A stretch of DNA of 64,000 nucleotides from positions 275,034-339,033 of the forward strand of contig JAHJWB010000003.1 of the NCBI GenBank assembly GCA_018828125.1. The letters are read 5' to 3'. Below are positions 11,267 to 60,574 of this stretch, one piece after another; position 1 is the stretch's first letter; each line of letters starts with the position of its first letter. A model generated the notes under the pieces. The model had not been told where the DNA came from. It made no database searches and saw only the letters and a program-made list of their open reading frames with translations. Both the position numbers and the translations under genes were made by a program. This stretch comes from Gammaproteobacteria bacterium. GTDB taxonomy: Bacteria; Pseudomonadota; Gammaproteobacteria; Burkholderiales; Burkholderiaceae_C.

Positions 11267-11980
11267 ATGAAAATTACTCCAAAATTGATAGCTGCTAGCG
11301 CTTTACTGGTGTGCGCTGGAGCCGCTTTTTCTCAAAATTCCGCTGTGACCGAGCCGCGGAACGTGGTGCAGCTGTCGGCCACCGGCACGGTAGAAGTACA
11401 GCAAGACTTGCTGGTGCTGAACCTGTCCACCAACAAAGAAGCGGCCGACGCCGCCACCGTTCAGACCCAGCTCAAGCAAGCGCTGGACGCCGCCCTGACC
11501 GAAGCCAAGCGCAGCGCGCTGCCCGGGCAACTCGACGTGCGCACGGGCCCGTTTGGCCTATACCCACGCTACGGCAAGGACGGCAAGATCAACGGCTGGC
11601 AGGGCCGAGCCGAGCTGGTGCTGGAGGGGCGCGACTTTGCCCGCATCACCACCACCGCCGGCAAGATCCAGACCCTGGCGATCAGCAATGTGGCGTTTGG
11701 CCTGTCGCGCGAAGCGCGTGCCAAGGTCGAGACCGAGGCGCAGACCGAAGCCATTGAACAATTCAAGTCCCGCGCTGCTGAACTGGCCAAGGGTTTTGGC
11801 TTTAGCAACTACAGCCTGCGGGAAGTGGCCGTGAACAGCAATGAAATGGTGCCCGGGCCGCGCCCGCGCATGATGGCGGCGGAAGCCAAGATGGGCTCGT
11901 TCTCTGATTCGGCCGTGCCGGTGGAGGCAGGCAAGGCGCAGGTCATTGTGAACGTGTCGGGATCAGTGCAAATGCGCTGA
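11267..11980 (+). CDS. SIMPL (DUF541) domain periplasmic protein
   Basis: Signal peptide; LSATGTVEVQQD and VPVEAGKAQVIVNVSGSV patterns. Confidence 0.82.
   Translation: MKITPKLIAASALLVCAGAAFSQNSAVTEPRNVVQLSATGTVEVQQDLLVLNLSTNKEAADAATVQTQLKQALDAALTEAKRSALPGQLDVRTGPFGLYPRYGKDGKINGWQGRAELVLEGRDFARITTTAGKIQTLAISNVAFGLSREARAKVETEAQTEAIEQFKSRAAELAKGFGFSNYSLREVAVNSNEMVPGPRPRMMAAEAKMGSFSDSAVPVEAGKAQVIVNVSGSVQMR
11276..11340 (+). repeat. Palindromic repeat copy 1, inside the SIMPL signal peptide
   Basis: aaaattgATAGCTgctAGCGCTTtactggtgtGCGCTggagcc; encodes KLIAASALLVCAGAAF. Confidence 0.75.
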
Positions 11981-11990
11981 TGTATCAGTA

Positions 11991-12040
11991 AAATTAGCAC
12001 CTGGCGCTTACTGGATAGGCGCTAGGTGCTATTGTTTTTC
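11991..12040 (-). repeat. Palindromic repeat copy 2, intergenic between convergent genes
   Basis: Reverse complement atagcacctAGCGCCTatccagtAAGCGCCaggtgct. Confidence 0.8.
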
Positions 12041-12177
12041 ATCTATGACGCTTGGCACTAGTGGGGGCCCTGGCCAGCAAATGCCGCGCTAGGGCCACCT
12101 CCCGCGCAGGCGTCGTCCCCTTCCTGGCGAAACCGAGAGACGGGGAAGGCGGCGCGTAGACGCACTGAGGGTTGTTC

Positions 12178-24465: not shown

Positions 24466-25620
24466 TTACCGTTTTTCGGCGGCAAAGCCCAAAAGTTGTG
24501 CGACGAGATCGTCTTGCCCCAAAAGGCGCGCGCGCGCAGCCTGAGTGCAGGCCGTCCATTCGGCCAATGTGGCGTCGTCAGGCAACTGCAGTGGTGCGCT
24601 GTCCAATCCGTTCCAGGTGGCATGAAACGCGCGCAGGGTCGGGGGCGCCTCCAGCCAGTCCAGAAACGCCATCAACTTGGCGTGGTGGGCGTTGTCATCT
24701 TGTGGGTAGATGTGCCAGACCAGCGCCTGTCCGGCCCACAGCGCCCGTACCAACGAATCCTCACCGCGCACGGCGTTGAAATCGCAGGCCCACAGCATCT
24801 CGTCAAATGCAGCTTGTGGGCGGTGGGGTAAATATGAAATTGATAGCTGATTGCGCTTACTGGATAAGCACTGGAAGCCATTTTGACTTGTATTTTCTGC
24901 AAGTGCCGACCGCACGGCGTGCGTGGGGCGGCCCGGAGTGACCAGTAGCTGCGTGGGGAGCGCCTGGCCTTGCTGCAGCAGGTCGGGCAACGCAGCGGGT
25001 TCGTAGCAAAACAGGGACATCCAGCGGTGTCCGGGCTCGACTTCACCCAGCCCGAATGCCGTTGCATGCGTGGCACGCCAGGCTGTCCGATCAAACCCTT
25101 CCCGCCGCGCCATCAGGTCCGGCTCGCGCAGCAATCCACCTGTTGCGGGAGTGAAGCCGGGGTAGAAAAACCAGCGCGTCCAGCCTGCCGCCGGGCCGGA
25201 CATGAGCAGCGAGGGCAGCCGGTGGTTGCGCTCCACGTAGCGCTCTGCCGACAGGTATTCAAGATTGATCCAAAGAGGTTGGAAGCCATTCTTTGGATGT
25301 TTTTGGCCTCTGGCGCTTGATGAATAAGCGCTGTAAGCTATAAATTCAGGAGCAATTTCACACCCGAACGCCTCCACCATCACATCGGGTGCGGGCTCGT
25401 CCGGGCCGGGCGGTGGCGAGCCCCAGGCGCGCAGCTCCACGCCGGGGCAGCCTTCGGGCGCCATCCACGCCAGGGCTGAGGCGTCATCCACCCACAGACG
25501 CACGCGATGGCCCCGGCCGGCCAATTGCGCCACCAGGCGCCAGCACACGCCGATGTCGCCAAAATTGTCGATCACGCGGCAGAAGACATCCCACTGCGAG
25601 GGAGGGACGGTAAGGTTCAT
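24466..25620 (-). CDS. earP: EF-P arginine rhamnosyltransferase
   Basis: FCRVIDNFGDIGVCWRL, WINLEYLSAE, FFYPGFT, VRGEDSLVRA, WHIYPQ. Confidence 0.96.
   Translation of the reverse strand: MNLTVPPSQWDVFCRVIDNFGDIGVCWRLVAQLAGRGHRVRLWVDDASALAWMAPEGCPGVELRAWGSPPPGPDEPAPDVMVEAFGCEIAPEFIAYSAYSSSARGQKHPKNGFQPLWINLEYLSAERYVERNHRLPSLLMSGPAAGWTRWFFYPGFTPATGGLLREPDLMARREGFDRTAWRATHATAFGLGEVEPGHRWMSLFCYEPAALPDLLQQGQALPTQLLVTPGRPTHAVRSALAENTSQNGFQCLSSKRNQLSISYLPHRPQAAFDEMLWACDFNAVRGEDSLVRALWAGQALVWHIYPQDDNAHHAKLMAFLDWLEAPPTLRAFHATWNGLDSAPLQLPDDATLAEWTACTQAARARLLGQDDLVAQLLGFAAEKR
24831..24897 (+). repeat. Palindromic repeat copy 5, inside earP (antisense orientation)
   Basis: gaaattgATAGCTgatTGCGCTTactggatAAGCACtggaagcc; read by earP as ENTSQNGFQCLSSKRNQLSISY. 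Confidence 0.8.
25281..25358 (-). repeat. Palindromic repeat copy 6, inside earP (sense orientation)
   Basis: Reverse complement tgctcctgaatttATAGCTtacAGCGCTTattcatcAAGCGCCagaggcc; encodes APEFIAYSAYSSSARGQK. Confidence 0.82.
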
Positions 25621-28912: not shown

Positions 28913-29896
28913 ATGAATATCACCCGCAAACAATTCACTACCACCCTGATGCTCGGGGCATTGGCCGCCGCTGTGTCTACCGGAGCCTGGGCCCAAGGCT
29001 CCTACCCGACCAAAAATGTGACCATGGTGGTGCCCACCGCCGCAGGCGGCACCACCGACCTGTCGGCCCGTATGCTGGCCCAGGCGCTGGCTCCGGTGCT
29101 GGGCCAGTCGGTCATCGTGGACAACAAGGGCGGCGGCAACGGCAACATTGCCGCCAGCATCGTCAAACGCGCCGAGCCTGATGGCTACACCGTGTTCATG
29201 CAGTACTCGGGCTACCACGTCATCTCGCCCCACATCACCAAGCAAAAGCAGTGGGATCAGGCGGACTTTCAGCCGGTGGCCAATGTGATCTCGGCCCCGC
29301 AGATCATCGTGGTGCGCAACGACCTGCCCGTGAAAACGCTGGCCAAGCTGATCGCCTACGCCAAGGCCAACCCCGGCAAGCTCAACTACGCCTCGTCGGG
29401 CAATGGCTCGCTGCAGCATGTGACCGGTGCCATGCTGGAACAGCAAGGCGGTATCAAGATGGTGCACGTGCCCTACAAAGGCACCGGGCCCGCGCTCCAG
29501 GACCTGCTGGGCGGCCAGGTGGATCTGACCTTTGGTACGGCGCCGCCGTTCATGCCCCACATCGCCAGCGGCAAGCTGCGCGTGCTGGCGGTGACGGGCA
29601 AAGAGCGCTTGCCAAGCCTGCCCGACGTGCCTACCACCGCCGAGGCGGGCTACCCCAAGGTCGATGCGACGTCGTGGTTTGCGTTGTTTGTGCCCGCAGC
29701 GGTGCCCAAGCCGGTGGTGGATAAGCTCACGGCCGACATCCGTACCGTGGTGCAAAGTGCCGCGTTCAAGCAGAAGGCGTTGGAGCAGGGCGCCACGGCC
29801 GACTACCAGACCCCGGCGCAGCTGGGCGACAAGGTCAAGGCGGACCTTTCCAACTGGGCGTCGGTGGTGAAAAGCTCGAAGATCGAAGCAGAATAG
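28913..29896 (+). CDS. Bug/TctC substrate-binding protein
   Basis: GGAG RBS; signal peptide, VPTAAGGTTD, DNKGGGNG, HVPYKG. Confidence 0.93.
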   Translation: MNITRKQFTTTLMLGALAAAVSTGAWAQGSYPTKNVTMVVPTAAGGTTDLSARMLAQALAPVLGQSVIVDNKGGGNGNIAASIVKRAEPDGYTVFMQYSGYHVISPHITKQKQWDQADFQPVANVISAPQIIVVRNDLPVKTLAKLIAYAKANPGKLNYASSGNGSLQHVTGAMLEQQGGIKMVHVPYKGTGPALQDLLGGQVDLTFGTAPPFMPHIASGKLRVLAVTGKERLPSLPDVPTTAEAGYPKVDATSWFALFVPAAVPKPVVDKLTADIRTVVQSAAFKQKALEQGATADYQTPAQLGDKVKADLSNWASVVKSSKIEAE

Positions 29897-29898
29897 TG

Positions 29899-29956
29899 GT
29901 CAAACTGGCCGCCAGCGCTTTATGGATAAGCGCTGGTAGCTATTGTTTTGATAGTT
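29899..29956 (-). repeat. Palindromic repeat copy 7, intergenic
   Basis: Reverse complement ctatcaaaacaATAGCTaccAGCGCTTatccataAAGCGCTggcggcc. Confidence 0.85.
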
Positions 29957-29993
29957 TTCGTGCCTCGCAAGACATGGCGCCACAATACGCGCC

Positions 29994-32070: not shown

Positions 32071-32637
32071 ATGTTCTGGACTATCCCCACCTTGATGACC
32101 TGGACGCGCATCGTCGCGATACCTTTGATCGTGGGTGTGTTCTACGCGCCGCTGGACCCCTCCATGCGCAACCTGATTGCCACGGTCATGTTTGTGGTGT
32201 TCGCCGCCACCGACTGGTTGGACGGCTACCTGGCCCGCAAGCTGAACCAGACGTCGTCATTTGGCGCCTTTCTGGACCCGGTGGCCGACAAGTTTCTGGT
32301 GTGTGCATCGCTTCTGGTGCTGGTGCACCTTCAGCGCGCCGATGTGTTTGTAGCCCTCATCATCATCGGGCGCGAAATCGCCATCTCTGCCCTGCGCGAA
32401 TGGATGGCGCAGATCGGTGCCAGCAAGAGCGTGGCGGTGCACATGATCGGCAAGGTTAAGACCACTGTACAGATGGTGGCCATCCCGTTTTTGCTGTACG
32501 ACGCGCGCCTTTTCGGCGTGATCGACACCGGCGTGTGGGGCACCTGGCTGATCTGGGCGTCGGCCGTGCTCACGGTCTGGTCCATGGTGTATTACCTGCA
32601 GAAGGCGCTCCCTGAAATACGGGCTCGCGTCAAGTAA
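32071..32637 (+). CDS. pgsA: Phosphatidylglycerophosphate synthase
   Basis: TDWLDGYLAR...FGAFLDPVADK CDP-alcohol phosphotransferase motif; follows uvrC. Confidence 0.95.
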   Translation: MFWTIPTLMTWTRIVAIPLIVGVFYAPLDPSMRNLIATVMFVVFAATDWLDGYLARKLNQTSSFGAFLDPVADKFLVCASLLVLVHLQRADVFVALIIIGREIAISALREWMAQIGASKSVAVHMIGKVKTTVQMVAIPFLLYDARLFGVIDTGVWGTWLIWASAVLTVWSMVYYLQKALPEIRARVK

Positions 32638-32640
32638 ATT

Positions 32641-32703
32641 CCAAGTCTTTTGTGTCGCTAGCGCTTGCTGGATAAGCGCTGGCAGCTATCTCTTCAGGAG
32701 CAT
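32641..32703 (-). repeat. Palindromic repeat copy 8; its end contains the RBS of the next gene
   Basis: Reverse complement tgctcctgaagagATAGCTgccAGCGCTTatccagcAAGCGCTagcg. Confidence 0.85.
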
Positions 32704-32706
32704 TCT

Positions 32707-33807
32707 ATGGCGAAGCATCGCATTGCAGTCATTGCCGGCGACGGCATTGGCAAGGAAGTCATGCCCGAGGGCCTGCGCGTGATGGACGCCGCTGCGCGCA
32801 AGTTTGGTATCGACCTGCAGTTTGACCATTTCGACTTTTCGAGCTGGGACTACTACGAGAAGCATGGCAAGATGCTGCCGGACAACTGGAAAGACCAGAT
32901 CGGCGGTCACGAAGCCATTTATTTCGGCGCGGTGGGCTGGCCGGAGAAGATTGCGGACCACGTCTCATTGTGGGGCTCGCTGCTCTTGTTTCGCCGCGAG
33001 TTTGACCAGTACATCAACCTGCGCCCCGCGCGCCTGATGCCGGGCGTGATCGCCCCCGTGGTGCGGCGCGATGGCTCACCCCGTTTGCCCGGTGAAATCG
33101 ACATGTTCATCGTGCGCGAGAACACCGAAGGCGAATACTCCAGCATCGGTGGCCGCATGTACGAAGGCACCCCACGCGAAATCGTGATGCAGGAGACCGT
33201 GATGTCACGCCACGGAGTGGATCGCGTGCTCAAATTTGCTTTTGAACTGGCGCAGTCCCGCCCCAAGAAGCACCTGACCAGCGCCACCAAATCCAATGGC
33301 ATCGCCATCACGATGCCCTACTGGGATGAGCGTGTGGCCGAGATGGCCAAGTCGTATCCGGATGTGAAGGTCGACAAGTTCCACATCGACATCCTCACGG
33401 CGCATTTTGTGCAGCGTCCCGACTTCTTTGATGTGGTGGTGGCCAGTAACCTGTTCGGCGACATCCTCAGCGACTTGGGCCCGGCCTGCACCGGCACCAT
33501 CGGCATCGCGCCGAGCGCCAACCTGAACCCTACCCGCACCATGCCCTCGTTGTTCGAGCCGGTGCATGGCTCCGCGCCCGACATTGCCGGGCAGGGCATC
33601 GCCAATCCCATCGGGCAGATCTGGTGCGGCGCGATGATGCTGGATTTCTTGGGCTATCGCGCTGCACATGATGCTGTTTTGGCCGCCACTGAGTCCGTGC
33701 TCGACCCCAAGAGCGGAGGTCCGCGCACGGCAGATCTTGGTGGCACCGCCCGTACGCAAGACGTTGGCAAGGCCATTGCCGAGGCTTTGTCGGGCTTTGG
33801 GGGTTGA
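32707..33807 (+). CDS. Tartrate dehydrogenase / D-malate dehydrogenase (decarboxylating)
   Basis: IAGDGIGKEV, RENTEGEYS, TKSNGI, YWDE, NLFGDILSD, FEPVHGSAPDI. Confidence 0.9.
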   Translation: MAKHRIAVIAGDGIGKEVMPEGLRVMDAAARKFGIDLQFDHFDFSSWDYYEKHGKMLPDNWKDQIGGHEAIYFGAVGWPEKIADHVSLWGSLLLFRREFDQYINLRPARLMPGVIAPVVRRDGSPRLPGEIDMFIVRENTEGEYSSIGGRMYEGTPREIVMQETVMSRHGVDRVLKFAFELAQSRPKKHLTSATKSNGIAITMPYWDERVAEMAKSYPDVKVDKFHIDILTAHFVQRPDFFDVVVASNLFGDILSDLGPACTGTIGIAPSANLNPTRTMPSLFEPVHGSAPDIAGQGIANPIGQIWCGAMMLDFLGYRAAHDAVLAATESVLDPKSGGPRTADLGGTARTQDVGKAIAEALSGFGG

Positions 33808-34103: not shown

Positions 34104-34376
34104 GTGAACAAAACCGAACTGATTGAGCACATCGCTACCAACGCCGACATCTCCAAGGCCGCTGCGGCACGTGCTTTGGAATCCACGATCGAGGCAGTCA
34201 AGAAGACTCTGAAGAAGGGCGGCACCGTATCGCTCGTCGGTTTCGGCACTTTCGCAGTCGGCAAGCGTGCTGCTCGCACAGGTCGCAATCCCCGTACTGG
34301 CGATACGATTAAAATCAAAGCTGCTAAAGTTCCTAAGTTTCGTCCTGGCAAGGCATTGAAAGATGCCTTGAACTGA
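34104..34376 (+). CDS. hupB: DNA-binding protein HU
   Basis: [36 protein letters not shown]; GTG start. Confidence 0.95.
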
Positions 34377-34391
34377 GGATCAGTTTAGGTG

Positions 34392-34467
34392 GGGTCCTTA
34401 GCTCAGTTGGTAGAGCGGCTCCTTTACACGGAGTAGGTCGGCGGTTCGAGACCGTCAGGACCCACCA
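34392..34467 (+). tRNA. tRNA-Val(TAC)
   Basis: GGGTCCT/AGGACCC acceptor, gctcc-tt-TAC-ac-ggagt arm, CCA. Confidence 0.97.
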
Positions 34468-34476
34468 CCACCGAAC

Positions 34477-34509
34477 AAAGGCGAACGTAAGTTCGCCTTT
34501 TGTTTTTTT
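34477..34509 (+). terminator. Intrinsic terminator after tRNA-Val
   Basis: aaaggcgaac-gtaa-gttcgccttt plus a T run. Confidence 0.85.
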
Positions 34510-34528
34510 GCCTTCTGAAAGATCGACC

Positions 34529-36460
34529 ATGTTTGAATCCATCCGCAAGCACTCCAAGATCGTGATGATCTTATTGTTCTTGCTGATCATTCCTTCGTTT
34601 GTGCTGGTAGGCATCGACAGCAACTACTTCTCCGAAAAGAGTCCGGTGGTGGCACGTGTTGATGGCCACAACATCAACCAGACGGACTGGGACAATGCCC
34701 ACCGCGTGGAGTCAGACCGCATGCGTGCGCAGTCTCCTTCGGTCGATCCGAAGCTGCTGGATTCGCCGCAAGCACGCTACGCTACCTTGGAGCGTTTGGT
34801 GCGAGATCGGGTGTTGGCTGCAGCGGCGCAAAAAATGCATCTGGTGACCACCGATGCCCGCTTGGCCCGCAGCCTGCAAGAGATTCCAGCGATTGCAGGC
34901 CTCAAGCGCGCCGATGGCACGCTGGATGCGGAGGCTTACAGGGCATTGGTCGGCAGCCAGGGCTTGACGCCCGAAGGCTTTGAAGCCAACGTGCGTCGAG
35001 ATCTTTCGGTCAACCAAGTCATGGGCGGCGTGATGAGCACGGTGTTCGGCACCGACGCGCAGATCAAACTGGCCCTCGATCCGCTTTATCAGCGCCGTGA
35101 AATCCAGGTTGCGCGCTTCAATCAGTCAGACTTTGCATCGAAAGTGTCGCCGACGGACGCCGACCTTGAAGCCTATTACAAAGCGCATCCGGCCCAGTTC
35201 CAGCAACTGGAACAAGCCGCGATTGAATATTTGGTCCTTGATGTCGATAGCGTGCGTGCAGGCATCACGCTTAACGAAGATGATTTGCGGACTTACTACA
35301 AAGAAAACGTAGAGCGTCTGGCTGGCAAAGAAGAGCGCCGTGCGAGCCACATTCTGATCAATGCCCCAAAAGATGCCCCAGCGGCAGACCGTGAAAAGGC
35401 CAAGGCCCGCGCCACACAATTGCTGGAGCAGGTACGCAAGTCCCCCGCCAGCTTCGGAGATGTCGCCAAGAAATCTTCTGACGACACGGGCTCGGCGTCC
35501 ATGGGGGGTGACCTGAACTTTTTCGGCCGTGGTGCCATGGTCAAGCCGTTCGAAGATGCTGCTTTTGCATTGAAGAAGGGTGAGATCAGTGATGTGGTCG
35601 AATCCGACTTTGGCTTCCATATCATTCAACTTACTGACATCAAGACGCCCCGTCAGCCAACTTTCGAAGAGCTGCGTCCGTCGATGGAAACCGAGCTGAA
35701 ACAGCAGCAAGCCCAGCGCAAATTTGCCGAAGTGGCCGAGACATTTACCAATGGCGTATATGAGCAGGCCGATAGCCTGCAGCCTGTTGCTGAAAAGCTC
35801 AAGCTCAAGATCCAGACAGCAACAGGCGTCACCCGCACCCCCGCTCCAGACGCTGTGGGCCCGTTGGCCAACAGCAAGTTTCTGGAAGCCCTGTTTTCTT
35901 CAGACTCGTTACAGAACAAGCGCAATACCGAGGCTGTAGAAGTGGGACCTAGCCAAATGGTGTCCGGTCGAGTAACTACTTACACCCCTGCCCGCACGTT
36001 GCCGTTGGAAGAAGTACGTGCCCGTGTTCGAAGCTTGTACGTTGCAGAGAAGGCGGCCGAACTGGCGCGGGCTGAAGGCGAAGCTAAGCTGACCGCTTGG
36101 AAGGCCGCCCCCGCATCGGCCGCAGGTTTGGCCGCGGCAGTGGAGATATCGCGTGAGCAGCCCCAGAACCTCCCCCGCCCGGTGATTGACGCCGCAATGC
36201 GCGCGCCTGCTGATGCGCTGCCCGGATGGATGGGTGTGGACCTGGGTGCCCAAGGTTATGCCGTCGTCAAGGTCAACCGTGTGGTTCCTCGCCAGGCACC
36301 GGATGCAGCGCGCGCGCAGCAAGAGCGCCAACAGTACCTGCAATGGTGGACCACAGCGGAAGGCATGGCCTACTATGAGTTGCTCAAGCAACGTTTCAAG
36401 GTCCAGATCAAGGCACCACGACCCACCAGCGCAACAGTGCAGGCAGCGCTAGAAAATTGA
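34529..36460 (+). CDS. ppiD: PpiD-like periplasmic chaperone (SurA_N + parvulin)
   Basis: N-terminal TM anchor, RRASHILI, GGDLNFF, MVKPFEDAAF, SDFGFHII. Confidence 0.88.
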   Translation: MFESIRKHSKIVMILLFLLIIPSFVLVGIDSNYFSEKSPVVARVDGHNINQTDWDNAHRVESDRMRAQSPSVDPKLLDSPQARYATLERLVRDRVLAAAAQKMHLVTTDARLARSLQEIPAIAGLKRADGTLDAEAYRALVGSQGLTPEGFEANVRRDLSVNQVMGGVMSTVFGTDAQIKLALDPLYQRREIQVARFNQSDFASKVSPTDADLEAYYKAHPAQFQQLEQAAIEYLVLDVDSVRAGITLNEDDLRTYYKENVERLAGKEERRASHILINAPKDAPAADREKAKARATQLLEQVRKSPASFGDVAKKSSDDTGSASMGGDLNFFGRGAMVKPFEDAAFALKKGEISDVVESDFGFHIIQLTDIKTPRQPTFEELRPSMETELKQQQAQRKFAEVAETFTNGVYEQADSLQPVAEKLKLKIQTATGVTRTPAPDAVGPLANSKFLEALFSSDSLQNKRNTEAVEVGPSQMVSGRVTTYTPARTLPLEEVRARVRSLYVAEKAAELARAEGEAKLTAWKAAPASAAGLAAAVEISREQPQNLPRPVIDAAMRAPADALPGWMGVDLGAQGYAVVKVNRVVPRQAPDAARAQQERQQYLQWWTTAEGMAYYELLKQRFKVQIKAPRPTSATVQAALEN

Positions 36461-36508: not shown

Positions 36509-36584
36509 GTGGCTGTAGCTCAGTTGGTAGAGTCCAGGATTGTGATTCCTGTTGTCGTGGGTTCGAGCCCCATCAGCCACCCCA
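36509..36584 (+). tRNA. tRNA-His(GTG)
   Basis: GTGGCTG/CAGCCAC acceptor, C discriminator with an encoded G-1 at 36508, anticodon GTG, CCA. Confidence 0.97.
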
Positions 36585-37107: not shown

Positions 37108-37184
37108 TGGCCTGCCCGGAGGGACTCGAACCCCCGACCTATAGCTTAGAAGGCTATTGCTCTATCCAGTTGAGCTACGGGCAG
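37108..37184 (-). tRNA. tRNA-Arg(TCT)
   Basis: CTGCCCG/CGGGCAG acceptor, atagc-ct-TCT-aa-gctat arm, CCA. Confidence 0.97.
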
Positions 37185-37371: not shown

Positions 37372-39105
37372 ATGCCCCACAGCGTCGCACTCATCCACAC
37401 CATCGCCGCGGCGCTGGGACTGGCGCTTGCGTTGGGGTTTATTGCTACGCGCTTGCGGCTTCCGGCGTTGGTGGGCTACCTTTTGGCGGGAGTGGTGCTA
37501 GGGCCGTTCACTCCTGGTTTTGTGGCCGACGCTGCAATGGCGAGCCAGCTGGCGGAGATAGGGGTCATGCTGCTGATGTTCGGCGTTGGCCTGCATTTCT
37601 CGCTGGGTGACCTGTTGGCGGTGCGCAAGATCGCGGTTCCCGGAGCGGTTGTCCAGATGATGGTAGCAACGGCATTGGGAATGTCGCTGGCCACCTGGTG
37701 GGGATGGGGCTTGGGTGGCGCGCTGGTGTTCGGTCTTGCGCTTTCTGTGGCCAGCACGGTGGTGCTGTTGAGAGCGTTGGAGACGCTGGGTATTCTCGAT
37801 ACCCATACCGGCCGCATTGCTGTGGGATGGCTGGTGGTGGAAGACCTTGCCATGGTCTTGGTCCTGGTGTTGTTGCCGCCGCTGGCGGGCTGGCTGGGCG
37901 GCACCACTGCGGAGGTGGATGGCGCGACGCTTTGGCAGACCCTGGGTTGGACCTTGCTTCAGGTTGGCGGGTTTGTAGCGCTGATGCTTTTGGTGGGGCG
38001 TCGTTTATTCCCTTGGGTTCTTTGGCAGGTTGCGCGCACAGGATCGCGTGAGTTGTTCACATTGTGCGTGGTGGCTGCGGCCGTAGGCATCGCTTTTGGG
38101 TCTGCAGCATTGTTTGGCGTGTCGTTCGCTTTGGGCGCATTTTTTGCGGGCATGGTGATGCGCGAGTCGGAGTTCAGCCACCGCGCAGCCCAGGAGTCGC
38201 TTCCGTTGCGAGACGCTTTTGCCGTACTTTTTTTCGTGTCGGTCGGCATGTTGTTCAACCCTGCCGTGCTGTGGGACCGCCCCCTTCAAGTGATCGCGGT
38301 GGGGGCGATCATCATGGTGGGAAAGACATTGGCTGCCGCGGCACTGGTACTGGCGTTTCGATACCCCCTCAACACCGCACTCACCGTATCTGCCAGCCTG
38401 GCGCAGATCGGTGAGTTTTCGTTCATTCTGGTGGCGCTTGGGTCTTCACTGGGGTTGCTCCCGCCCGAAGGGGCAAGCCTGGTATTGGCCGGGGCGCTGT
38501 TTTCCATGGCGCTCAATCCCTTGCTTTTCCATGCCATTGCCCCGTTGCAGGCCTGGTTGCTCGCGCGGTCAGCTTTGGCCCGTCGGCTGGAGCAGCGCGA
38601 TGATCCGTTGGCGGAGTTGCCGATGAGCACGGATTCACGTTATCTCGCGCGGCAGGTGGTCTTGGTGGGGTATGGCCGGGTGGGGCGTCGTGTGGCGAGC
38701 ACGTTGGCGGCAAGCGACATTCCATTTGTGGTCGCTGAGCAAAACCGCGAACTGGTAGAAACATTGCGCGCTGCTGGTATTGCAGCTGTATTCGGCGATG
38801 CCACCGATCCAGCGGTGTTGATCCAGGCCCATATCGCACGGGCGGCCATGCTGGTGATCGCGACTCCGGACACCCTGAATGTGCGGCAGATCATTGAAAC
38901 TGCCAGAACGCTGAACCCCGCCGTTGAAACGGTGGTCCGCAGCCAGGGTGAGGCAGAAGCCCGTGTTTTGCGGCAGGATTGGGACAGCACCGTTTTTGTC
39001 GCCGACGAAGCGCTGGCGCAAGCGATGTCAAGGCATGTGTTGGAGCGGACGGAGTCGCGCTTGGCGCGACACACCTCACCAGCACCGCTGCACGAGCGGG
39101 GATGA
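37372..39105 (+). CDS. CPA2 family cation:proton antiporter with C-terminal TrkA_N domain (YbaL/Kef-like)
   Basis: LVGYLLAGVVLGP, EIGVMLLMFGVGL, WLVVEDL, QIGEFSF, GYGRVG. Confidence 0.9.
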   Translation: MPHSVALIHTIAAALGLALALGFIATRLRLPALVGYLLAGVVLGPFTPGFVADAAMASQLAEIGVMLLMFGVGLHFSLGDLLAVRKIAVPGAVVQMMVATALGMSLATWWGWGLGGALVFGLALSVASTVVLLRALETLGILDTHTGRIAVGWLVVEDLAMVLVLVLLPPLAGWLGGTTAEVDGATLWQTLGWTLLQVGGFVALMLLVGRRLFPWVLWQVARTGSRELFTLCVVAAAVGIAFGSAALFGVSFALGAFFAGMVMRESEFSHRAAQESLPLRDAFAVLFFVSVGMLFNPAVLWDRPLQVIAVGAIIMVGKTLAAAALVLAFRYPLNTALTVSASLAQIGEFSFILVALGSSLGLLPPEGASLVLAGALFSMALNPLLFHAIAPLQAWLLARSALARRLEQRDDPLAELPMSTDSRYLARQVVLVGYGRVGRRVASTLAASDIPFVVAEQNRELVETLRAAGIAAVFGDATDPAVLIQAHIARAAMLVIATPDTLNVRQIIETARTLNPAVETVVRSQGEAEARVLRQDWDSTVFVADEALAQAMSRHVLERTESRLARHTSPAPLHERG

Positions 39106-39172
39106 AAAAACATATCAAAATGGGCTGTGGCGCTTTATAGATAAGCGCTAACAGCTATCAATTTGATAGTTT
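39103..39172 (-). repeat. Palindromic repeat copy 9, between convergent genes
   Basis: Reverse complement ctatcaaattgATAGCTgttAGCGCTTatctataAAGCGCCacagccc. Confidence 0.85.
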
Positions 39173-39389
39173 TTCGACTTATGTAGGTTTACCGTGACTG
39201 TTGCTTGGTGGTGGGCACGCCGTCTGCAGCCCCACCGAACGAGACCTTGTTTGCTCGTTGGTGATTGCTTGTCGCGGCTATTTCTTCAATGCCAACTGTT
39301 GCTGCGCCGCAGGCGGCGCCTTCCTTGCAGAGTGCAGTCTCCCGCGGAAGGCCAGCAAGCGCCATGCGCTCACCGGGCCATGGCAAAAC

Positions 39390-54719: not shown

Positions 54720-55733
54720 TTACCTATTGGCCAACTCGCCCGCCCATGGCAGATAAAGCCCCTCCGCAGTCGTGATTGAGCGTGCAGCTCTGGCGGCACG
54801 TGCGGTGGCGATCGCAGTGGCTTCTGCGGCCATCGTCGCCAGCACCATCATGCCCAGCGTTTTTTTGGCACAGCCTGTGCCCAGGCTGAAAAGGGTGTCG
54901 CCATCGGACATGGTATGCACCGGGTTGATGCTGCGGGCCAGGCCATCGTGCGCGGCAACGGCCAAGCGGTGGGCCTGCACCTTGGTGATGATCGCATCGG
55001 TTGCCACCACGCCGATGGTGGTGTTGGTGCCCGCCAGCAAAGGCTGTGGCGGGTCGCCGCGAAGCAGGGCGCGGCGGGTGTCGCGCAAACGCAGGCCGTC
55101 GTCGGTGCGGGCTCCGGCAATCACCTGGGCGGTGTCTGGGTCGATCACATCGCCCAGGGCATTGCAGGCGATCAGCGCGCCCACCGTGACGCCATCCACT
55201 GTGACGGAAGCGGTGCCGATGCCACCCTTCATCGCGCGCTGGATGCCGAAGATCTTGCCCAGCGCTGCACCCGTGCCCGCGCCCACATTGCCTTCGGCCG
55301 GGTCGGCGGTGGATGCCGCATCGCATGCCGCGTATCCCGCCGCAGCGTCGGGGCGGATGCGCATGTCGCCGACCAGAAGGTCAAACAGCACGGCGGCGGG
55401 GACGATCGGCAGGCGGCCCACGGCCACGTCAAAGCCGATGTCGCGTTCTTCCAGCCAGCGCACGGCGCCGGTGGCGGCGTCCAGCCCCCAGGCGCTGCCC
55501 CCGGCCAGCATGATGGCGTGCACCTTGTCCACCAGGTTGGAGGGGTGGAGCAGATCGGTCTCGCGTGTGCCCGGCGCTGCGCCGCGCACATCCACACCAG
55601 CCACGGCGCCATCGCGGGTGATGATGACGGTGCAGCCCGTGGGGCGGCGGGTTTCGGTGAAGTGGCCTACCTCGATGCCCGCCACGCGGGTGATGCTGCC
55701 AGCGCTGCCGGCCAGAACGTGTTGAGAACTCAT
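54720..55733 (-). CDS. P1/DmpA family peptidase (Ntn-like)
   Basis: TGCTV, RGAAPGTRETD, GNVGAGTG, NTTIG, HTMSDGD. Confidence 0.88.
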   Translation of the reverse strand: MSSQHVLAGSAGSITRVAGIEVGHFTETRRPTGCTVIITRDGAVAGVDVRGAAPGTRETDLLHPSNLVDKVHAIMLAGGSAWGLDAATGAVRWLEERDIGFDVAVGRLPIVPAAVLFDLLVGDMRIRPDAAAGYAACDAASTADPAEGNVGAGTGAALGKIFGIQRAMKGGIGTASVTVDGVTVGALIACNALGDVIDPDTAQVIAGARTDDGLRLRDTRRALLRGDPPQPLLAGTNTTIGVVATDAIITKVQAHRLAVAAHDGLARSINPVHTMSDGDTLFSLGTGCAKKTLGMMVLATMAAEATAIATARAARAARSITTAEGLYLPWAGELANR

Positions 55734-55799
55734 GGCCGCCGATTATGGTGCCCGGGCGCACGAGCTGGTTTGTGCGACGTCAGTCAGCCGGCAGGGGGC

Positions 55800-56156
55800 T
55801 CACGGGGCCTTTTCGATCTGCTTGACGTGGTAAGCGCCATTGACCTGCTCGGCCCGAAAGCGCACCTTGTCACCCTGGTTCAAGTCACCCACCACGCTGG
55901 CGTCCGCCACGCGAAAGACCATGGTCATGGGCGGCATTTCCAGGTTCTTGATCTCGCCGTGTCTCAGGGTGAGGCGCAGTGTGCGCGGGTCCCAGCGGGT
56001 GATCTCGCCTTCGCTCATTTCCACCTGCGCCGCCGACGGGGCCGGATTGTGGCTGTTGTGGCTATCGGAGGCTGCAGGGGTGGGGGCTTGCGCCAGAGCG
56101 GGCCCTGCGCCCAGGAGAAGCAGGCTGGCGACCAGTGGGATGGACAGGATTTTCAT
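55800..56156 (-). CDS. CusF-like periplasmic copper-binding protein
   Basis: Signal peptide; TLRHGEIKNLEMPPMTMVF. Confidence 0.9.
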   Translation of the reverse strand: MKILSIPLVASLLLLGAGPALAQAPTPAASDSHNSHNPAPSAAQVEMSEGEITRWDPRTLRLTLRHGEIKNLEMPPMTMVFRVADASVVGDLNQGDKVRFRAEQVNGAYHVKQIEKAP

Positions 56157-56692
56157 GTCGATGCCTTCTTGTTGTAGCTTTTGAAAACACGGGCGCTGCC
56201 GTCGCGCGCCACCAGCAGCACGTCGTACGGGTCACGCCGGTCGCCATAAGCAGGGCCGTCCATGCCCGGCGAGCCCACGGGCATGCCAGGCACGGCCAGG
56301 CCCAGGGCCTTCGGCTTTTGCTGCAGCAGGGTGCGCACATCGCTGGCGGGCACGTGGCCTTCCACCACATAGCCGCCGACGAGGGCGGTGTGGCACGAGC
56401 CCAGCTTTTGCGGCAGACCCAGGCGCGCGCGCACCGCGTTGTTGCCGGTGTCGTGCACCTTCACGGCAAAGCCGTTGGCCTGCATGTGGTCCACCCAGTC
56501 TTGGCAGCAGCCGCAGTTGGGGTCTTTCCACACCTCCAGCGGCGTGGGGGTGTTGGTGGCTGCGCGGGTCATGCTTGGCAGCAGTGCGGCGGCTACACCC
56601 GCGCCCAGCAAAGGCAGGGTGGTGCTGAGCCATTGGCGGCGGGCAGGGTGGGCTGCGGTGGATGCGGAGCGTGAATTGCGTGAGTTGGTCAT
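56153..56692 (-). CDS. DUF411 / CopG-like metal-binding protein
   Basis: Twin-Arg-like RRQWL leader, KDPNCGCC, SCHTA, EGHVP, LAVPGMPVGSPGM. Confidence 0.88.
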   Translation of the reverse strand: MTNSRNSRSASTAAHPARRQWLSTTLPLLGAGVAAALLPSMTRAATNTPTPLEVWKDPNCGCCQDWVDHMQANGFAVKVHDTGNNAVRARLGLPQKLGSCHTALVGGYVVEGHVPASDVRTLLQQKPKALGLAVPGMPVGSPGMDGPAYGDRRDPYDVLLVARDGSARVFKSYNKKAST

Positions 56693-56710
56693 GGCGTGTC
56701 TCTCCTGGAG

Positions 56711-57208
56711 TTATTGGTTACGGGGCAGCACGGTGATGGTTCCTGTCATGCCGGCCTGGTAGTGGCCAGGGATCAGGCAGGCAAAGTCAAATTTCCCGGC
56801 GCGGTTGAAGTGCCACACGATGTCGCCGGTCTTGGCCGCCGCCACGTGGGCCATGTAGGGCTCGTCATGTTCCATGCCGGGGTGCTTTTTCATCATCTCG
56901 GCGTGCTGGTCCAGCTCGGCCTTGGTGCCGATCACGATCTCGTGCAACACTTTGCCTTTGTTCTCTACAAGCAGCCGTACGGTGTCGCCCTCGCGCACTT
57001 CGATGTGATTCGGCGCAAAGCGCATGTCATCGCTCATGCGGACGGTGATGGTGCGGCGCACGGCCTTGGCGTCGCCTGCGATGCCCCAGTCCTTTTGCTC
57101 CTTGACCACCGGGCTGTTCGATGCGGTGTGGTGGGCGTTTTCATGGCCAAAAGAGGTGATGGCGCTTATCCACAAAGCGCAAGCAGCTATCAATTTAATA
57201 GTATTCAT
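56711..57208 (-). CDS. Cupredoxin (CopI-like)
   Basis: DDMRF, HEIVIG, His/Met-rich loop, FACLIPGHYQAGM. Confidence 0.88.
   Translation of the reverse strand: MNTIKLIAACALWISAITSFGHENAHHTASNSPVVKEQKDWGIAGDAKAVRRTITVRMSDDMRFAPNHIEVREGDTVRLLVENKGKVLHEIVIGTKAELDQHAEMMKKHPGMEHDEPYMAHVAAAKTGDIVWHFNRAGKFDFACLIPGHYQAGMTGTITVLPRNQ
57140..57208 (-). repeat. Palindromic repeat copy 10, forming the cupredoxin signal peptide
   Basis: ATGaatactattaaattgATAGCTgctTGCGCTTtgtggatAAGCGCCatc; encodes MNTIKLIAACALWISAIT. Confidence 0.82.
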
Positions 57209-57229
57209 GGTGTGTGCTGATGGGGAGGT

Positions 57230-58612
57230 TCAGTGCTGGTGGCCGCTGGCAGCGGGCTTGCGTGCGCTGGCTGCGCCGGGCGCAGTGCCGGGGGCGTCTG
57301 CGCGGGCGGGGCGGGGTGTGCTGGCGCGCGCGCCCTGCCATTCGTAGGCCACCGTGCCCGCAGGTTGCGCAAAGTCACCCGGGTCGCGGTAGTCGCCCGC
57401 AGGCTGGTCGGCGCGCACCTTGAGCGTGGTGAACATGCCGCCCATCTCCAGCGGGCCAAAGGGGCCCGTGCCGGTCATCATCGGAAAGGTGTTGTCGGGC
57501 AGCGGCATTTCCATGGCACCCATGTCGGCCATGCCGCGCTCGCCCATCACCATGTAGTCGGGCACGATCTTCTGGATCTTGCCCACCAGACCCCGGTGGT
57601 CCACGCCGATCATGGTGGGCACGTCGTGCCCCATGGCGCCCATGGTGTGGTGGCTTTTGTGGCAGTGCAGGGCCCAGTCGCCAGGTTCGTCGGCAACCAG
57701 CTCGACCTGCCGCATCTGGCCCACGGCCACGTCGGTGGTCACCTCGGGCGAGCGCGCGCTTTTGGGTACGGGGCCGCCGTCAGTGCCGGTCACTTCAAAC
57801 TCGTGCCCATGCAGGTGGATAGGGTGGTTGGTCATGGTGAGGTTGCCCACGCGCATGCGCACGCGCTCACCCTGGCGCGCCACCAGCGGGCTGATGGCGG
57901 GGAACACGCGACTGTTCCAGCACCAGATGTTGTGGTCCAGCATGGTGTTGACCTTGGGGGTCATGCTGCCAGGCTCAACGTCAAAAGCGTTGAGCAGGAA
58001 GGCGTAGTCGCGCTGCACCTTGGCGATGTGCGGGTGCGCAGCCTTCGGGTGGGTGATCCACAGGCCCATCATGCCCATTGCCATCTGCACCATCTCATCG
58101 GCATGCGGGTGGTACATAAAGGTGCCGGGGCGGCGCGCCACAAACTCGTACACAAAGGTCTTGCCCGGCTGGATGGCGGGCTGGGTGAGCCCGCCCACGC
58201 CGTCCATGCCGTTGGGCAGGCGCTGGCCGTGCCAGTGGATGGTGGTGTGCTCGGGCAGACGGTTGGTGACGAAGATGCGCACGCGGTCGCCTTCAACCAC
58301 CTCGATGGTGGGGCCCGGGCTTTGGCCGTTGTAGCCCCACATGTTGACCATGAAGCCGGGCGCCACCTCGCGCACCACGGGCTCGGCCACCAGGTGGAAC
58401 TCCTTGACGCCCGCGTTCATGCGCCAGGGTGCGGTCCAGCCATTCAAAGTGACCACCGGGTTGTAGGGGCGGCCCGTGGGCGGTTGCAGCGGCGGCGCGG
58501 TGTCGGCGCTGGTCTGCATGGCGGGTTCGGGCAGCGCGGCCAGGGCCACGCGGCTGACGGAGGCTGCGGCCACTGCCGTGGCGGCGCCGGAGAAGAAATT
58601 GCGGCGGTTCAT
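57230..58612 (-). CDS. Tat-exported two-domain multicopper oxidase with a Met-rich tail
   Basis: MNRRNFF; IHWHG, YHPH, HPIHLHG, HCHKSHHTMGAM. Confidence 0.92.
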   Translation of the reverse strand: MNRRNFFSGAATAVAAASVSRVALAALPEPAMQTSADTAPPLQPPTGRPYNPVVTLNGWTAPWRMNAGVKEFHLVAEPVVREVAPGFMVNMWGYNGQSPGPTIEVVEGDRVRIFVTNRLPEHTTIHWHGQRLPNGMDGVGGLTQPAIQPGKTFVYEFVARRPGTFMYHPHADEMVQMAMGMMGLWITHPKAAHPHIAKVQRDYAFLLNAFDVEPGSMTPKVNTMLDHNIWCWNSRVFPAISPLVARQGERVRMRVGNLTMTNHPIHLHGHEFEVTGTDGGPVPKSARSPEVTTDVAVGQMRQVELVADEPGDWALHCHKSHHTMGAMGHDVPTMIGVDHRGLVGKIQKIVPDYMVMGERGMADMGAMEMPLPDNTFPMMTGTGPFGPLEMGGMFTTLKVRADQPAGDYRDPGDFAQPAGTVAYEWQGARASTPRPARADAPGTAPGAASARKPAASGHQH

Positions 58613-58613
58613 G

Positions 58614-60038
58614 TCAGTGGCCTTGTGGGGTGGTGGAGGCTGCGGCGCCGGATGTGAGGCCCTGCAGGGCGCCTGGCGATGTGCCGGTGAGTGCGAGCTG
58701 CAGATCGGTCTCGGCCAGCCAGAAGTCGCGCTGTGCTTCTATGGCGTTGGCCACGGCCTGGGTGCTGTTGCGCGCTTCGGCCAGCATGTCCCACACACTG
58801 GCCAGCATGCCGTTGTAGCGCAGGGTGGTTTCATCGCTGATGAGTTGGCGCAGGGGTACGACCTCGGCCTGCTGCTGGCGCGCCAGGTCGAGTGCGGTAT
58901 GGTAGGTGAGCCAGGCGGCGCGCACCTCGCTGCGGGCGCGCACGGCGGTGTCTTGCAGCTGGGCGGCGCTTTGTTCCACCTCGGCTTGCGCGCGGGTGCG
59001 TGCTGCGCCGCCCCAGTCGAACAGGGGCAGGGGCAGTTCGATCTCCCAGCCGCGTGTGATCTCGCGGTGACCACCATCGCGCTCCGTCGCCGTGTTGCGG
59101 CTGTAGGCCAGGCCGATGTCGCCAAACACAGCGCCCGCACGGCTCCAGCCCTGCCGGGTGGCTTGGGTGTCGAGCTGGCGACGGGCCACCTGTACATCGA
59201 GCCGTTCGCGCAGCGCGGTGGTTTCGATGCCGTCTGCGGGCAAGGCGGTGGCGGGCAGGGGCGGCAGGCGGTTGGCCAGCTGGTACTGCGTCTGCAGCCC
59301 CCACACACCGATGCGGCGGTTGAGCTGTTCGCGTTCGGTGGCTGCGGCCAGACGGGCACGGGCGCTTTGGCGGGTGGCCTCTTGCAGCACGGCCTGCTCG
59401 CGGGCCTGCTGCAGGCGGCTCCAGTTGCCCACCTGCACCATGCGGCGGGCCAGCTCGGCCCCGGCCTCGGCCGCCTCGACCATGCGGTCGTGGGTGGCGG
59501 CTATTTGCTCCGCAGCCACAGCACGCAGCCAGGCGCGGCGGGTATCGGCGGCAAGCGTCACCACGTCCTGCGCTGCTTGCAGCGTCGCGATCTGCAGGCG
59601 CTCGGCCTGGCGCGCGGTGCGCCAGGGCAGGGTGATGAGGTCCAGCAGGCTGAAGGCCAGGGTGCGCTCGATTTCGCGCTCGTGGCTGTTGGTGAATCGC
59701 CCGAGGGCCAAGTGTGGGTTGGGCAAAGTGATGGCCTGGACGCGCTCGGCATCGGCCACGCCCAGTGCGGCCAAGCGTGCTTGCAGACCGGGGTTGTGGA
59801 GCAGGGCGATGCGAACGGCGGCGTCTTGCGTGAGGGGATGGGCGAGCCATTCCTGAATGGATTTCTGCGCCGTTGCGCGGGCGAACGGGTCGGCGGCTGG
59901 CAGGGGCGCGTTCACACCGCCCGTGCGGCCTGCCGTGAGCGCTGCGACGTCGCCGCGCAGACCATCCGGCGAGACGCTGGCGCAGCCGGCCAATGCCGTC
60001 GCAGCCACCAGAACCGAGAGGCGATGCAACTTGCTCAT
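58614..60038 (-). CDS. TolC/OEP family outer-membrane lipoprotein
   Basis: Lipobox LAGC, ALLHNPGL, LPLPLFDWG, YNGMLASVWDML. Confidence 0.9.
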   Translation of the reverse strand: MSKLHRLSVLVAATALAGCASVSPDGLRGDVAALTAGRTGGVNAPLPAADPFARATAQKSIQEWLAHPLTQDAAVRIALLHNPGLQARLAALGVADAERVQAITLPNPHLALGRFTNSHEREIERTLAFSLLDLITLPWRTARQAERLQIATLQAAQDVVTLAADTRRAWLRAVAAEQIAATHDRMVEAAEAGAELARRMVQVGNWSRLQQAREQAVLQEATRQSARARLAAATEREQLNRRIGVWGLQTQYQLANRLPPLPATALPADGIETTALRERLDVQVARRQLDTQATRQGWSRAGAVFGDIGLAYSRNTATERDGGHREITRGWEIELPLPLFDWGGAARTRAQAEVEQSAAQLQDTAVRARSEVRAAWLTYHTALDLARQQQAEVVPLRQLISDETTLRYNGMLASVWDMLAEARNSTQAVANAIEAQRDFWLAETDLQLALTGTSPGALQGLTSGAAASTTPQGH

Positions 60039-60469
60039 GGCTTGCCTCCATGTGGAGGGGGGTGACGGTGTATAGGCGGCGTGCTGCGGTGGCGGCCCGG
60101 GTGCATCTCGTGGTGGGGCGGGGCTTGGAGATGGGACGAAGTAGGCGTCGCACCCAGGTTCGGTTTTTGGGCTTTTTGTTGTTGCGCTTCCCACACCACG
60201 ATGTCGGCATGCCCACGCGGAAAGGCGCTGACAGCCGCATGCCCATCGCGCCAGGTTTGTGGCGATGGCGTTGCGTCGGCGAGCGGGGGCTGCAACGGCA
60301 GGCTTTGGTGAATGAGCGGAGCAGTGGCCGCATTCGGGTGTGCTGCATCGCCAGTGGCGCTGGCTTGGGCCAGCGAGAGCAGCGGCGACCACAGGGCAAG
60401 GTAAACGAGGCGCCTTGGCCTCAGAAGCCAGAGCGAAGAGGGAAACGGAAGGGAAGCAGGGGCGCGCAT
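60035..60469 (-). CDS. Secreted hypothetical protein with a His/Pro-rich tail
   Basis: Signal ending in AQA; WRDGHAAVSAFPRGHADIVVWE; stop overlaps the TolC ATG. Confidence 0.65.
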   Translation of the reverse strand: MRAPASLPFPSSLWLLRPRRLVYLALWSPLLSLAQASATGDAAHPNAATAPLIHQSLPLQPPLADATPSPQTWRDGHAAVSAFPRGHADIVVWEAQQQKAQKPNLGATPTSSHLQAPPHHEMHPGRHRSTPPIHRHPPPHGGKP

Positions 60470-60574
60470 GGCGATCTCCAGGCAACGAACGAACAAGGCA
60501 TTGCGCTGCCGCCCGAGGACCGCTGCAGTCAGCGGACATTCAGGCAATGGCAGACGCACTTCGGGCGTCGGAGA

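Follow-up and report, generated by a model that had tools for sequence, protein, structure and literature searches.

We describe here a dispersed palindromic repeat of 69 nucleotides (nt) that, as the sequences suggest with high probability, has repeatedly become the Sec or lipoprotein leader of exported proteins, replacing an older leader and then being tuned by substitution. The repeat resembles repetitive extragenic palindromes (REPs) and is found in a 64-kb window (the whole stretch of DNA analyzed, C6:275034-339033) of an Acidovorax genome (5.18 Mb, 23 contigs) near A. radicis and A. facilis, where it forms the 5' coding ends of two genes, those of a CopI-like cupredoxin and a SIMPL protein. 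The evidence consists of homology between leader DNA and the element, the limitation of such leaders to element-bearing lineages, the unrelated leaders of outgroup orthologues, a swapped segment at the start of the CopI gene, and a biased choice of residues in the leaders. From these we infer translation from the upstream ATG, export, cleavage, and an order in which insertion preceded the deletion of the old leader.

Element copies as leaders of two unrelated proteins

The CopI-like cupredoxin is encoded at 56711..57208 on the minus strand (Pfam Copper-bind, 2.9e-9; Cupredoxin_1, 7.7e-7) and starts with MNTIKLIAACALWISAITSFG|HEN (MNTIKLIAACALWISAITSFGHEN); the -3/-1 rule predicts a Sec signal peptide of M1-G21 (57146..57208, minus strand) that is cleaved before His22 (S-F-G|H). 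Features described for CopI include a periplasmic location (PMC13308877). The SIMPL/DUF541 protein of 237 amino acids (11267..11980, plus strand; Pfam PF04402, 1.3e-34) starts with MKITPKLIAASALLVCAGAAFS|QNS (MKITPKLIAASALLVCAGAAFSQNS), and its predicted Sec signal peptide comprises M1-S22 (11267..11332, plus strand) with cleavage at A-F-S|Q, the Pfam SIMPL domain beginning at residue 34. A first-pass annotation of the window had remarked that the two leaders use the same repeat frame and that the proteins are otherwise unrelated. Both statements hold: each leader is a full copy of the element, with similarity reaching beyond the eight residues that had been noted, and the mature proteins belong to different Pfam families and give no BLASTP alignment at E≤100.

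The copy in the cupredoxin gene (57137..57205, minus strand) makes up codons 2-24 (NTIKLIAACALWISAITSFG|HEN; nhmmer 48.4 bits, E 1.8e-12), its last ~10 nt having diverged from the consensus, and the copy in the SIMPL gene (11273..11341, plus strand) makes up codons 3-25 (ITPKLIAASALLVCAGAAFS|QNS; 49.7 bits, E 7.7e-13, profile positions 5-77). With these genome-wide E values, both match the whole 69-nt profile, including the two hairpin arms, and they share the DNA string AAATTGATAGCTGCT[T/A]GCGCTTT. Their GC content of 0.41-0.44 is among the lowest 1-2% of all gene 5' ends. The 23-mer AAATTGATAGCTGCTWGCGCTTT occurs four times in the window at ≤3 mismatches and in none of 100 shuffles; aligned, the four 23-mer copies are similar over ~50-70 nt, with an internal hairpin inside.

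The n-, h-, and c-regions of a Sec-type signal peptide are present in the element leaders, and we infer export and cleavage from the sequences and from the biology of the families. The n-regions read MNTIK in CopI and MKITPK in SIMPL, and Lys or Arg precedes the core in all ten leaders of the genome-wide census given below. The respective cores, LIAACALWISAIT and LIAASALLVCAGAA, are uncharged and hydrophobic. The predicted cleavage sites (S-F-G|H in CopI, A-F-S|Q in SIMPL, and A-S-A|H in a YcnI protein from the census) are position-equivalent to the cleavage contexts of outgroups; outgroup cupredoxin leaders likewise end right before His (..WA|HGD, ..LA|HGD), and SIMPL orthologues carry AFA|QN or AFS|QN. 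The A-rich 5' end of the element would supply the Lys-containing n-region, both hairpin arms and the loop the Ala/Leu/Ile h-region, and the 3' tail the small-residue c-region.

The element and its distribution

An nhmmer profile made from 153 seed copies gave 864 matches genome-wide; 187 palindromic loci were matched on both strands, and merging left ~657 loci, a density of about one per 8 kb. Counted from the ATA of ..TTGATAGCTG.., the information profile goes up at -15 and down again at +53, with flat stretches on either side, and the arm-to-arm spacing is constant in 490 of 492 copies. These sharp edges and the constant spacing indicate a conserved unit of 69 nt, which equals 23 codons and is a multiple of three. 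The unit (consensus, ATTGCTACTAAATTGATAGCTGCTAGCGCTTAATGGATAAGCGCTAGAGGCCAATTTGACTCAAAATTT) is an imperfect palindrome, or hairpin, with the stem CTAGCGCTTAT/ATAAGCGCTAG and the termini AAATTG/CAATTT, and it is AT-rich (~40% GC, in a host genome of ~62% GC). Its frame f0 reads K-L-I-A-A-S-A-Y-W-I-S-A-R-G-Q-F-D-S; this frame is open in 354 of 657 loci (54%) and has a stop codon at position 7 in 20% of the copies. A weaker hairpin in the leader copies was considered and dropped, since their mean minimum free energy (-14.2 kcal/mol, versus -16.2 kcal/mol in the others) does not differ significantly (p=0.13). At the gathering threshold of Rfam, none of the eight copies in the window matched a family, the only matches there being four tRNAs.

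By our own approximate gene calls (3835 genes, 80% coding), 444 loci are intergenic. Convergent intergenic regions hold 150 copies against 76 expected, an approximately twofold excess, whereas divergent promoter regions hold 33 against 91 expected, a nearly threefold depletion, and the median distance of intergenic copies from a gene 3' end is 40 nt. The intergenic distribution of the element is REP-like. The loci that fall wholly within predicted genes number ~120; sense f0 (45) and antisense f1 (44), the two usually open frames, account for most of them.

Among relatives, the element is patchy yet abundant in the family, with several Comamonadaceae genera rich in copies: the core is present in 23 of 120 sampled genera, about eight of which have 80 to >300 core matches. 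Within the genus it occurs in 21 of 24 congeners, the other three (G002, G009, and G019) having zero copies. In the single-contig genome G047, from another genus, the first ~35 one-mismatch matches among those listed, up to 1.84 Mb, are all on the plus strand, which hints at a replichore orientation bias there. The idea of a tie between orientation and replication direction, which came from this run, was dropped, as element orientation shows no association with GC skew in the present genome (Fisher p=0.36).

Ten leaders across the genome

Genome-wide, frame f0 of the element forms the N terminus of ten proteins from normally exported families: SIMPL, the CopI-like cupredoxin, a second cupredoxin, an M16 peptidase, a Chalcone_3 protein, a DUF1775/YcnI protein, a SCO1/SenC lipoprotein, a GspD secretin, a HupE/UreJ protein, and DsbD. 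This census took f0 copies near the starts of long, coding-like open reading frames (ORFs) and set aside ORFs that merely extend into an upstream copy (ParA, UppP, and others). The ten leader copies score 32-57 bits with nhmmer, and eight of them rank within the lowest 0-2% of gene 5' ends by GC content. The SCO1 protein, the sole lipoprotein (signal peptidase II) host and encoded outside the window, has the lipobox ..ATGLFSA|C (L-[LF]-[GST]-A-C in orthologues). In the YcnI host, the DUF1775 domain begins at ASA|H straight after the element. Proteins of the YcnI family bind copper through the free amino group and the side chain of an N-terminal His that is exposed by signal-peptide cleavage (PMC8424229); as cleavage is functionally required in this family, the position of the domain start argues for use of the copy as a leader.

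The leaders are no more like one another (identity, 0.61) than background copies are (0.60), and their start codons lie at varied distances upstream of the Ile anchor (3, 6, 6, 7, 7, 8, 9, 12, 15, and 15 codons), the ATG of Chalcone_3 being inside the element. Background-level identity and varied start spacing indicate independent co-options and not one leader passed between genes, and copying from gene to gene is ruled out by the same identity values. As part of the explanation that we hold to be highly probable, the element would have been co-opted independently as a predicted signal peptide in at least ten genes.

The first-pass annotation had also suggested looking for enrichment of the repeat at the N termini of secreted proteins, and such enrichment is found. 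Of the N-terminal f0 copies, 12 must be translated, and exported proteins account for ten of these (the other two are in CysN and an ABC ATPase). By comparison, the share of proteins with a signal peptide by heuristic is 31% in the proteome (P=3e-4), and 13 of 82 hosts of internal copies are exported (16%; P=6e-6); the sorting of the 12 hosts into exported and cytoplasmic was not blind. A crude frame test normalized for openness gives only a modest N-terminal enrichment, which becomes clear once translated leaders are split from over-extended ORFs.

As a separate observation, an antisense frame of the element (..PLALVHKALVAI..; W/P-L-A-L-[IV]-H-K-A-L-V-A-I) seems to form an N-terminal hydrophobic leader in two or three more proteins, namely, an amidohydrolase (C9:88612..), a BepA-like M48 protein of 515 amino acids (C19), and a protein of 414 amino acids (C10:177608).

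Leaders of orthologous proteins

Orthologues were compared for five of the ten hosts (CopI, SIMPL, YcnI, SCO1, and Chalcone_3). For all five, the orthologues outside the element-bearing lineages have unrelated, GC-rich leaders, which answers a comparison that the first-pass annotation had recommended. In the orthologues checked, the frame is open through the element in every case, and leader lengths differ by whole codons. The congeners with unrelated or GC-ameliorated leaders are the three genomes without element copies (G002, G009, and G019).

In the case of CopI, ~19 congeners share MNTIK[LF]IAA.AL.., and their leader DNA matches the profile from the ATG on, with E values down to 4e-18. GC-rich leaders that do not match the profile are found in L019, L021, and L022 (from element-free genomes), in L023 (from another genus), and in the paralogues L029 and L030. 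The junctions are kept: the copA stop codon, a spacer of ~20 nt ending in ..cacacc, and ATGAA on one side and the mature CATG (His1) on the other. Between these anchors lie 87 nt of GC-rich leader in L019 and ~57 nt of element in the present genome. The conserved anchors flanking the swapped segment indicate that the CopI leader was replaced and not created.

For SIMPL, the element leader is found in the same register throughout Acidovorax as well as in three other genera, Polaromonas, Xenophilus, and Alicycliphilus. The close strains L061-L063 are 97-99% identical in SIMPL. A nested clade within Acidovorax still encodes the peptide pattern (MKITTRLIATAALLACAG..), using GC-rich codons that give no match at the DNA level, and SIMPL orthologues at ~30% identity have unrelated leaders. 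YcnI, SCO1, and Chalcone_3 have element leaders genus-wide and unrelated leaders in outgroups; in the element-free genome G009, SCO1 has a GC-rich leader whose peptide is homologous to the element type. It had been supposed that insertion of the repeat could create or replace an export signal. Replacement is supported by the CopI swap, whereas no case of a de novo export signal was found in the five families compared, each of which already had a leader in outgroups.

Residues lost and gained in the leaders

The frame had initially been taken for a ready-made Sec signal. This is overstated, although the layout of n-, h-, and c-regions is near-adequate: in the consensus peptide, core position 12 is occupied by Arg and position 7 by Tyr, the peptide fails a home-made signal-peptide heuristic owing to Arg12, and all ten leaders are changed from it. 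Arg or Lys at position 12 is found in none of the ten leaders but in 306 of 443 intergenic copies (P=1e-5) and in 13 of 27 internal f0 copies (P=0.007). Conversely, all ten leaders have a hydrophobic residue at position 7, compared with 160 of 443 intergenic copies (P=5e-5). Leaders have a mean hydropathy of 1.61, intergenic copies of 0.71, and internal copies of 0.41, and internal copies in cytoplasmic proteins, for example, EarP, retain the polar form (..SAYPSSARGQFDS..). Only 36 of 443 intergenic copies (8%) are both open and charge-free over the core; with a liberal version of the heuristic and a supposed start, 104 of 444 (23%) pass, as do all ten leaders.

The leaders are farther from the consensus than intergenic copies (identity, 0.655 versus 0.712). 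Their GC content at third codon positions (GC3) is 0.36-0.40, versus 0.84-0.87 in the same genes. Identity at 4-fold synonymous sites is 0.58-0.75 in leaders and 0.59-0.71 in mature domains; since it is no higher in the leaders, there is no sign of ongoing homogenization or conversion, and the idea of an extra nucleotide-level constraint or of gene conversion acting on leaders was dropped for this reason.

Proposed course of leader replacement and alternatives to it

We propose that a copy of the element came to lie within the 5' coding end of a gene whose product is exported, where its 23 codons would keep the frame. The inserted copy would provide a second, near-adequate arrangement of n-, h-, and c-regions, after which the redundant old h-region could be deleted. 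One or a few substitutions (Arg12 to Ser, Gly, or Thr; Tyr7 to Leu or Cys) would then tune the copy, which would take over as the Sec signal peptide or, in SCO1, as the lipoprotein signal. Less firmly than the replacement itself, we lean toward regarding the REP-like repeat more generally as a reusable proto-signal-peptide cassette, which would have replaced leaders in at least ten genes (for SIMPL, in several Comamonadaceae genera) and would also have given in-frame inserts to ~80 other proteins.

Several observations weigh against this proposal, in addition to the unblinded sorting of the 12 hosts. The leader swaps are not plain insertions of 69 nt, and further steps or another mechanism are needed. 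The SIMPL and SCO1 leaders of element-free genomes are homologous to the element type at the peptide level, so that for these genes one must assume amelioration once the family had been lost. At the EarP copies and the copy at 39105-39173, no empty site turned up from which insertion length, a target duplication, or a mobility mechanism could be read. Finally, a tree of the SIMPL mature domain shows the element state as paraphyletic and calls for at least 10 changes of state, with one element-type pair (L103 and L105) nested within a GC-rich clade. The SIMPL pattern fits an old acquisition that was followed by repeated amelioration and perhaps by some allelic recombination.

The strong homoplasy of the SIMPL leader state is also what might be expected if an existing K-x-I-A-A-x-A-L-L leader had been overwritten by templated copying from an element copy, through gene conversion or template switching. 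The CopI swap falls exactly between kept anchors with no net gain of 69 nt, and the EarP sites gain 7-11 residues only, with outgroup peptides at one site that are already element-like, both of which are in line with such overwriting. However, exact matches between the GC-rich leaders and the element are no more than short, which by eye (no identity was computed) is too little for RecA-type conversion, the 4-fold synonymous identity is not raised in the leaders relative to the mature domains, and allelic recombination between strains can account for the nested pair. We therefore consider overwriting of this kind unlikely and prefer replacement by an inserted copy.

Insertion into the coding end would be illusory if the element lay in 5' untranslated regions and the true starts were downstream, the leaders being artefacts of choosing the longest ORF. 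The longest ORFs of ParA, UppP, and several other genes do run into an upstream element despite a better downstream start, and the SIMPL frame contains GTG codons at positions 32-33, directly ahead of the domain. In the cupredoxin gene, by contrast, no in-frame ATG lies between element and domain, the next being codon 58, within the cupredoxin domain. Shine-Dalgarno motifs precede the proposed starts, with AAGGA 10 nt 5' of the SIMPL ATG and, in the CopI orthologues, with AAGGAGAGG, GGAG, or GAGGAG suitably spaced from the start that they share. The orthologue frames are all open through the element, as against 54% of copies with an open f0, YcnI requires a cleaved N-terminal His (PMC8424229), and the host families are all normally exported, so that a leader is required. 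On this evidence, downstream starts as a general explanation are highly improbable.

Slightly less credible again is the reverse direction, in which the 5' end of some secreted protein's gene would be the ancestor of the element family and some leaders would be its source. The length of the element is that of a typical signal peptide, 54% of copies have f0 open, and in 42 intergenic copies an open f0 goes together with an in-frame ATG ≤8 codons upstream. Against this descent, the outgroup orthologues of the five tested genes have unrelated leaders, the element has the REP-like 3'-end distribution given above (convergent, 150 versus 76 expected; divergent, 33 versus 91), the consensus has an Arg in the core and 20% of copies a stop at position 7, and the leaders are farther from the consensus than the intergenic copies are. 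Chance or convergence between Ala/Leu/Ile-rich signal peptides and a translated repeat has next to no probability: the peptide motif alone is common, and the paralogous cupredoxins L029 and L030 read ..SLIAASALVAL.. with no DNA-level relation, but chance similarity is excluded by the low GC content of the leaders, with their rare AT-rich codons, and by genome-wide DNA profile matches of E ~1e-12 that span both arms and the tail, and the 23-mer is absent from 100 shuffles.

Other element copies and features of the window

The profile search found eight element copies in the window, where the 23-mer string search had shown four. Apart from the two leader copies, a weaker copy (11979..12047, minus strand; 26.7 bits, E 1.1e-5) lies directly after the SIMPL stop codon, a typical REP-like 3' place, so that the SIMPL gene has an element copy at each end. 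Two copies lie in frame in the gene for EarP, the EF-P rhamnosyltransferase (24466-25620, minus strand; Pfam, 386 bits). One is antisense (24828..24896, plus strand; 54.6 bits) and is translated as ..QNGFQCLSSKRNQLSISY..; the other is sense (25288..25356, minus strand; 47.7 bits) and uses the K-L-I-A-A frame with the Arg kept (..PEFIAYSAYSSSARGQKHPKN..) in what is a cytoplasmic protein. Orthologue alignments, which for internal copies were made for EarP only, place both copies in all element-bearing congeners, with GC-rich remnants in the element-free G009 and G019 and shorter or absent segments in other genera. The two sites add just 7-11 residues, and the outgroup peptides at site 1 (..F[VI]IAMA..) are already like the element frame.

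Of the remaining copies, one is intergenic (29890..29958, minus strand; 49.6 bits) and one lies between the genes at 32071..32637 and 32665..33807, in antisense overlap with the predicted start of the latter (32636..32704, minus strand; 45.3 bits). The eighth (39105..39173, minus strand; 53.9 bits) is intergenic, adjoins the stop codon of the gene ending at 39105, and is orthologous in most of the genus. When empty sites were sought among congeners at this copy and at the EarP copies, none was found, and these copies are old and orthologous genus-wide. In three congeners (L261, L263, and L266, from G018, G022, and G021, respectively), the site orthologous to 39105-39173 holds another AT-rich hairpin repeat (..TTGCTATTAAATATATAGCAA..), which might represent either another family of repeats or a subfamily that has diverged strongly.

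The cupredoxin gene is part of a copper-resistance cluster (54720-60539, minus strand) that encodes an OEP, a multicopper oxidase, the CopI-like cupredoxin, a DUF411 protein, and a CusF-like protein; within it, only the cupredoxin has an element-type leader. The tRNA genes matched by Rfam are located at 16344-16417, 34392-34464, and 36509-36581 (plus strand) and at 37111-37184 (minus strand). Three of them cluster at 34.4-37.2 kb, which is the part of the window with the lowest GC content (0.553 for 34001-36000; 0.595-0.597 in the flanking bins).

Significance and relation to known repeats

Signal peptides evolve fast and their origins can rarely be traced. Here the source can be identified in the DNA, it is recurrent, and it is datable by genome comparison. 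Untouched element copies, tuned leaders, and GC-ameliorated leaders form a natural series that displays the minimal changes by which a near-signal is made to work. For annotation, the element stands at hundreds of Comamonadaceae gene boundaries, and its frame behavior helps to tell true leaders from over-extended ORFs. The leaders with AT-rich rare codons (GC3 of ~0.38 versus 0.86) offer a test bed for the idea that export is aided by non-optimal codons in signal sequences.

REPs and REPINs are repetitive extragenic palindromes mobilized by RAYT transposases, the genes of which are typically flanked by an inverted pair of repeats. The present element is similar to them in its hundreds of copies, imperfect hairpin, convergent excess, divergent depletion, and genus-stable orthologous copies. 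It differs from them in being longer than the classic REPs of 20-40 nt and in being AT-rich, whereas REPs are GC-rich. The genome has a single Y1_Tnp gene (PF01797, IS200/RAYT-type; C22:47839-48543). An element adjoins its stop codon and none lies within 3 kb upstream, the nearest one being 3 kb away; the gene has this 3' copy only, not the inverted pair that typically flanks RAYTs. The element lacks a replichore orientation bias. In comparison with MITEs (miniature transposable elements with inverted repeats), the present element is an imperfect palindrome over its full length, and each end carries AAATTG; no empty site was found from which a duplication could be read.

The BRE repeats (75-91 bp, 69% GC, tandem and like variable-number tandem repeats, ≤29 copies per genome; Hot et al. 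2011, PMC3110155) also occur in Comamonadaceae (Polaromonas, Delftia, and Acidovorax) and sometimes overlap or lie inside ORFs (PMC3110155). Identity with BRE was rejected, since the present element is 69 nt long, has ~40% GC, and occurs as hundreds of dispersed single copies. Intragenic small mobile sequences of enterobacteria, among them ERIC/RU elements with ORFs, are the subject of two papers (Delihas 2007, PMC2759123; Delihas 2011, PMC3184786). Judging by their titles and abstracts, these sequences are similar in that small intergenic repeats can give peptide segments to proteins; a signal-peptide role, recurrent co-option, and leader replacement are not mentioned in those titles and abstracts. 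In-frame intragenic repeats as such are known (the palindromic elements of Rickettsia, ERIC/RU, and Coxiella QMITEs). We found no report of a dispersed bacterial repeat serving as a signal peptide, though a precedent may exist.

The Rickettsia palindromic elements (RPEs), reportedly described by Ogata et al. in 2000, are the other point of comparison. They are summarized in a 2024 review of MITEs, in which the words "signal peptide" do not occur (PMC10969869), and the literature searched contained no report of RPEs as signal peptides. The renewal of signal peptides from a repeat therefore seems, as far as we could find, to be undescribed for bacteria, in-frame palindromic repeats themselves being known. 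RPEs are longer (~100-150 nt, versus 69 nt) and are described as inserts within proteins, whereas most copies of the present element are extragenic, at gene 3' ends, and its host is a free-living, GC-rich betaproteobacterium. The likeness is functional only, RPE sequences not having been compared: both are short palindromic repeats that lie in frame in many unrelated genes (here, ~120 of 657 loci) and are translated with the host protein. The colonization of genes by in-frame palindromic repeats, best known in the obligate intracellular Rickettsia, also occurs here on a large scale in a free-living genus of soil and water. If our account is true, signal-peptide turnover in bacteria would have a source that has not been described before, and Betaproteobacteria that are free-living and GC-rich would show an RPE-like phenomenon.

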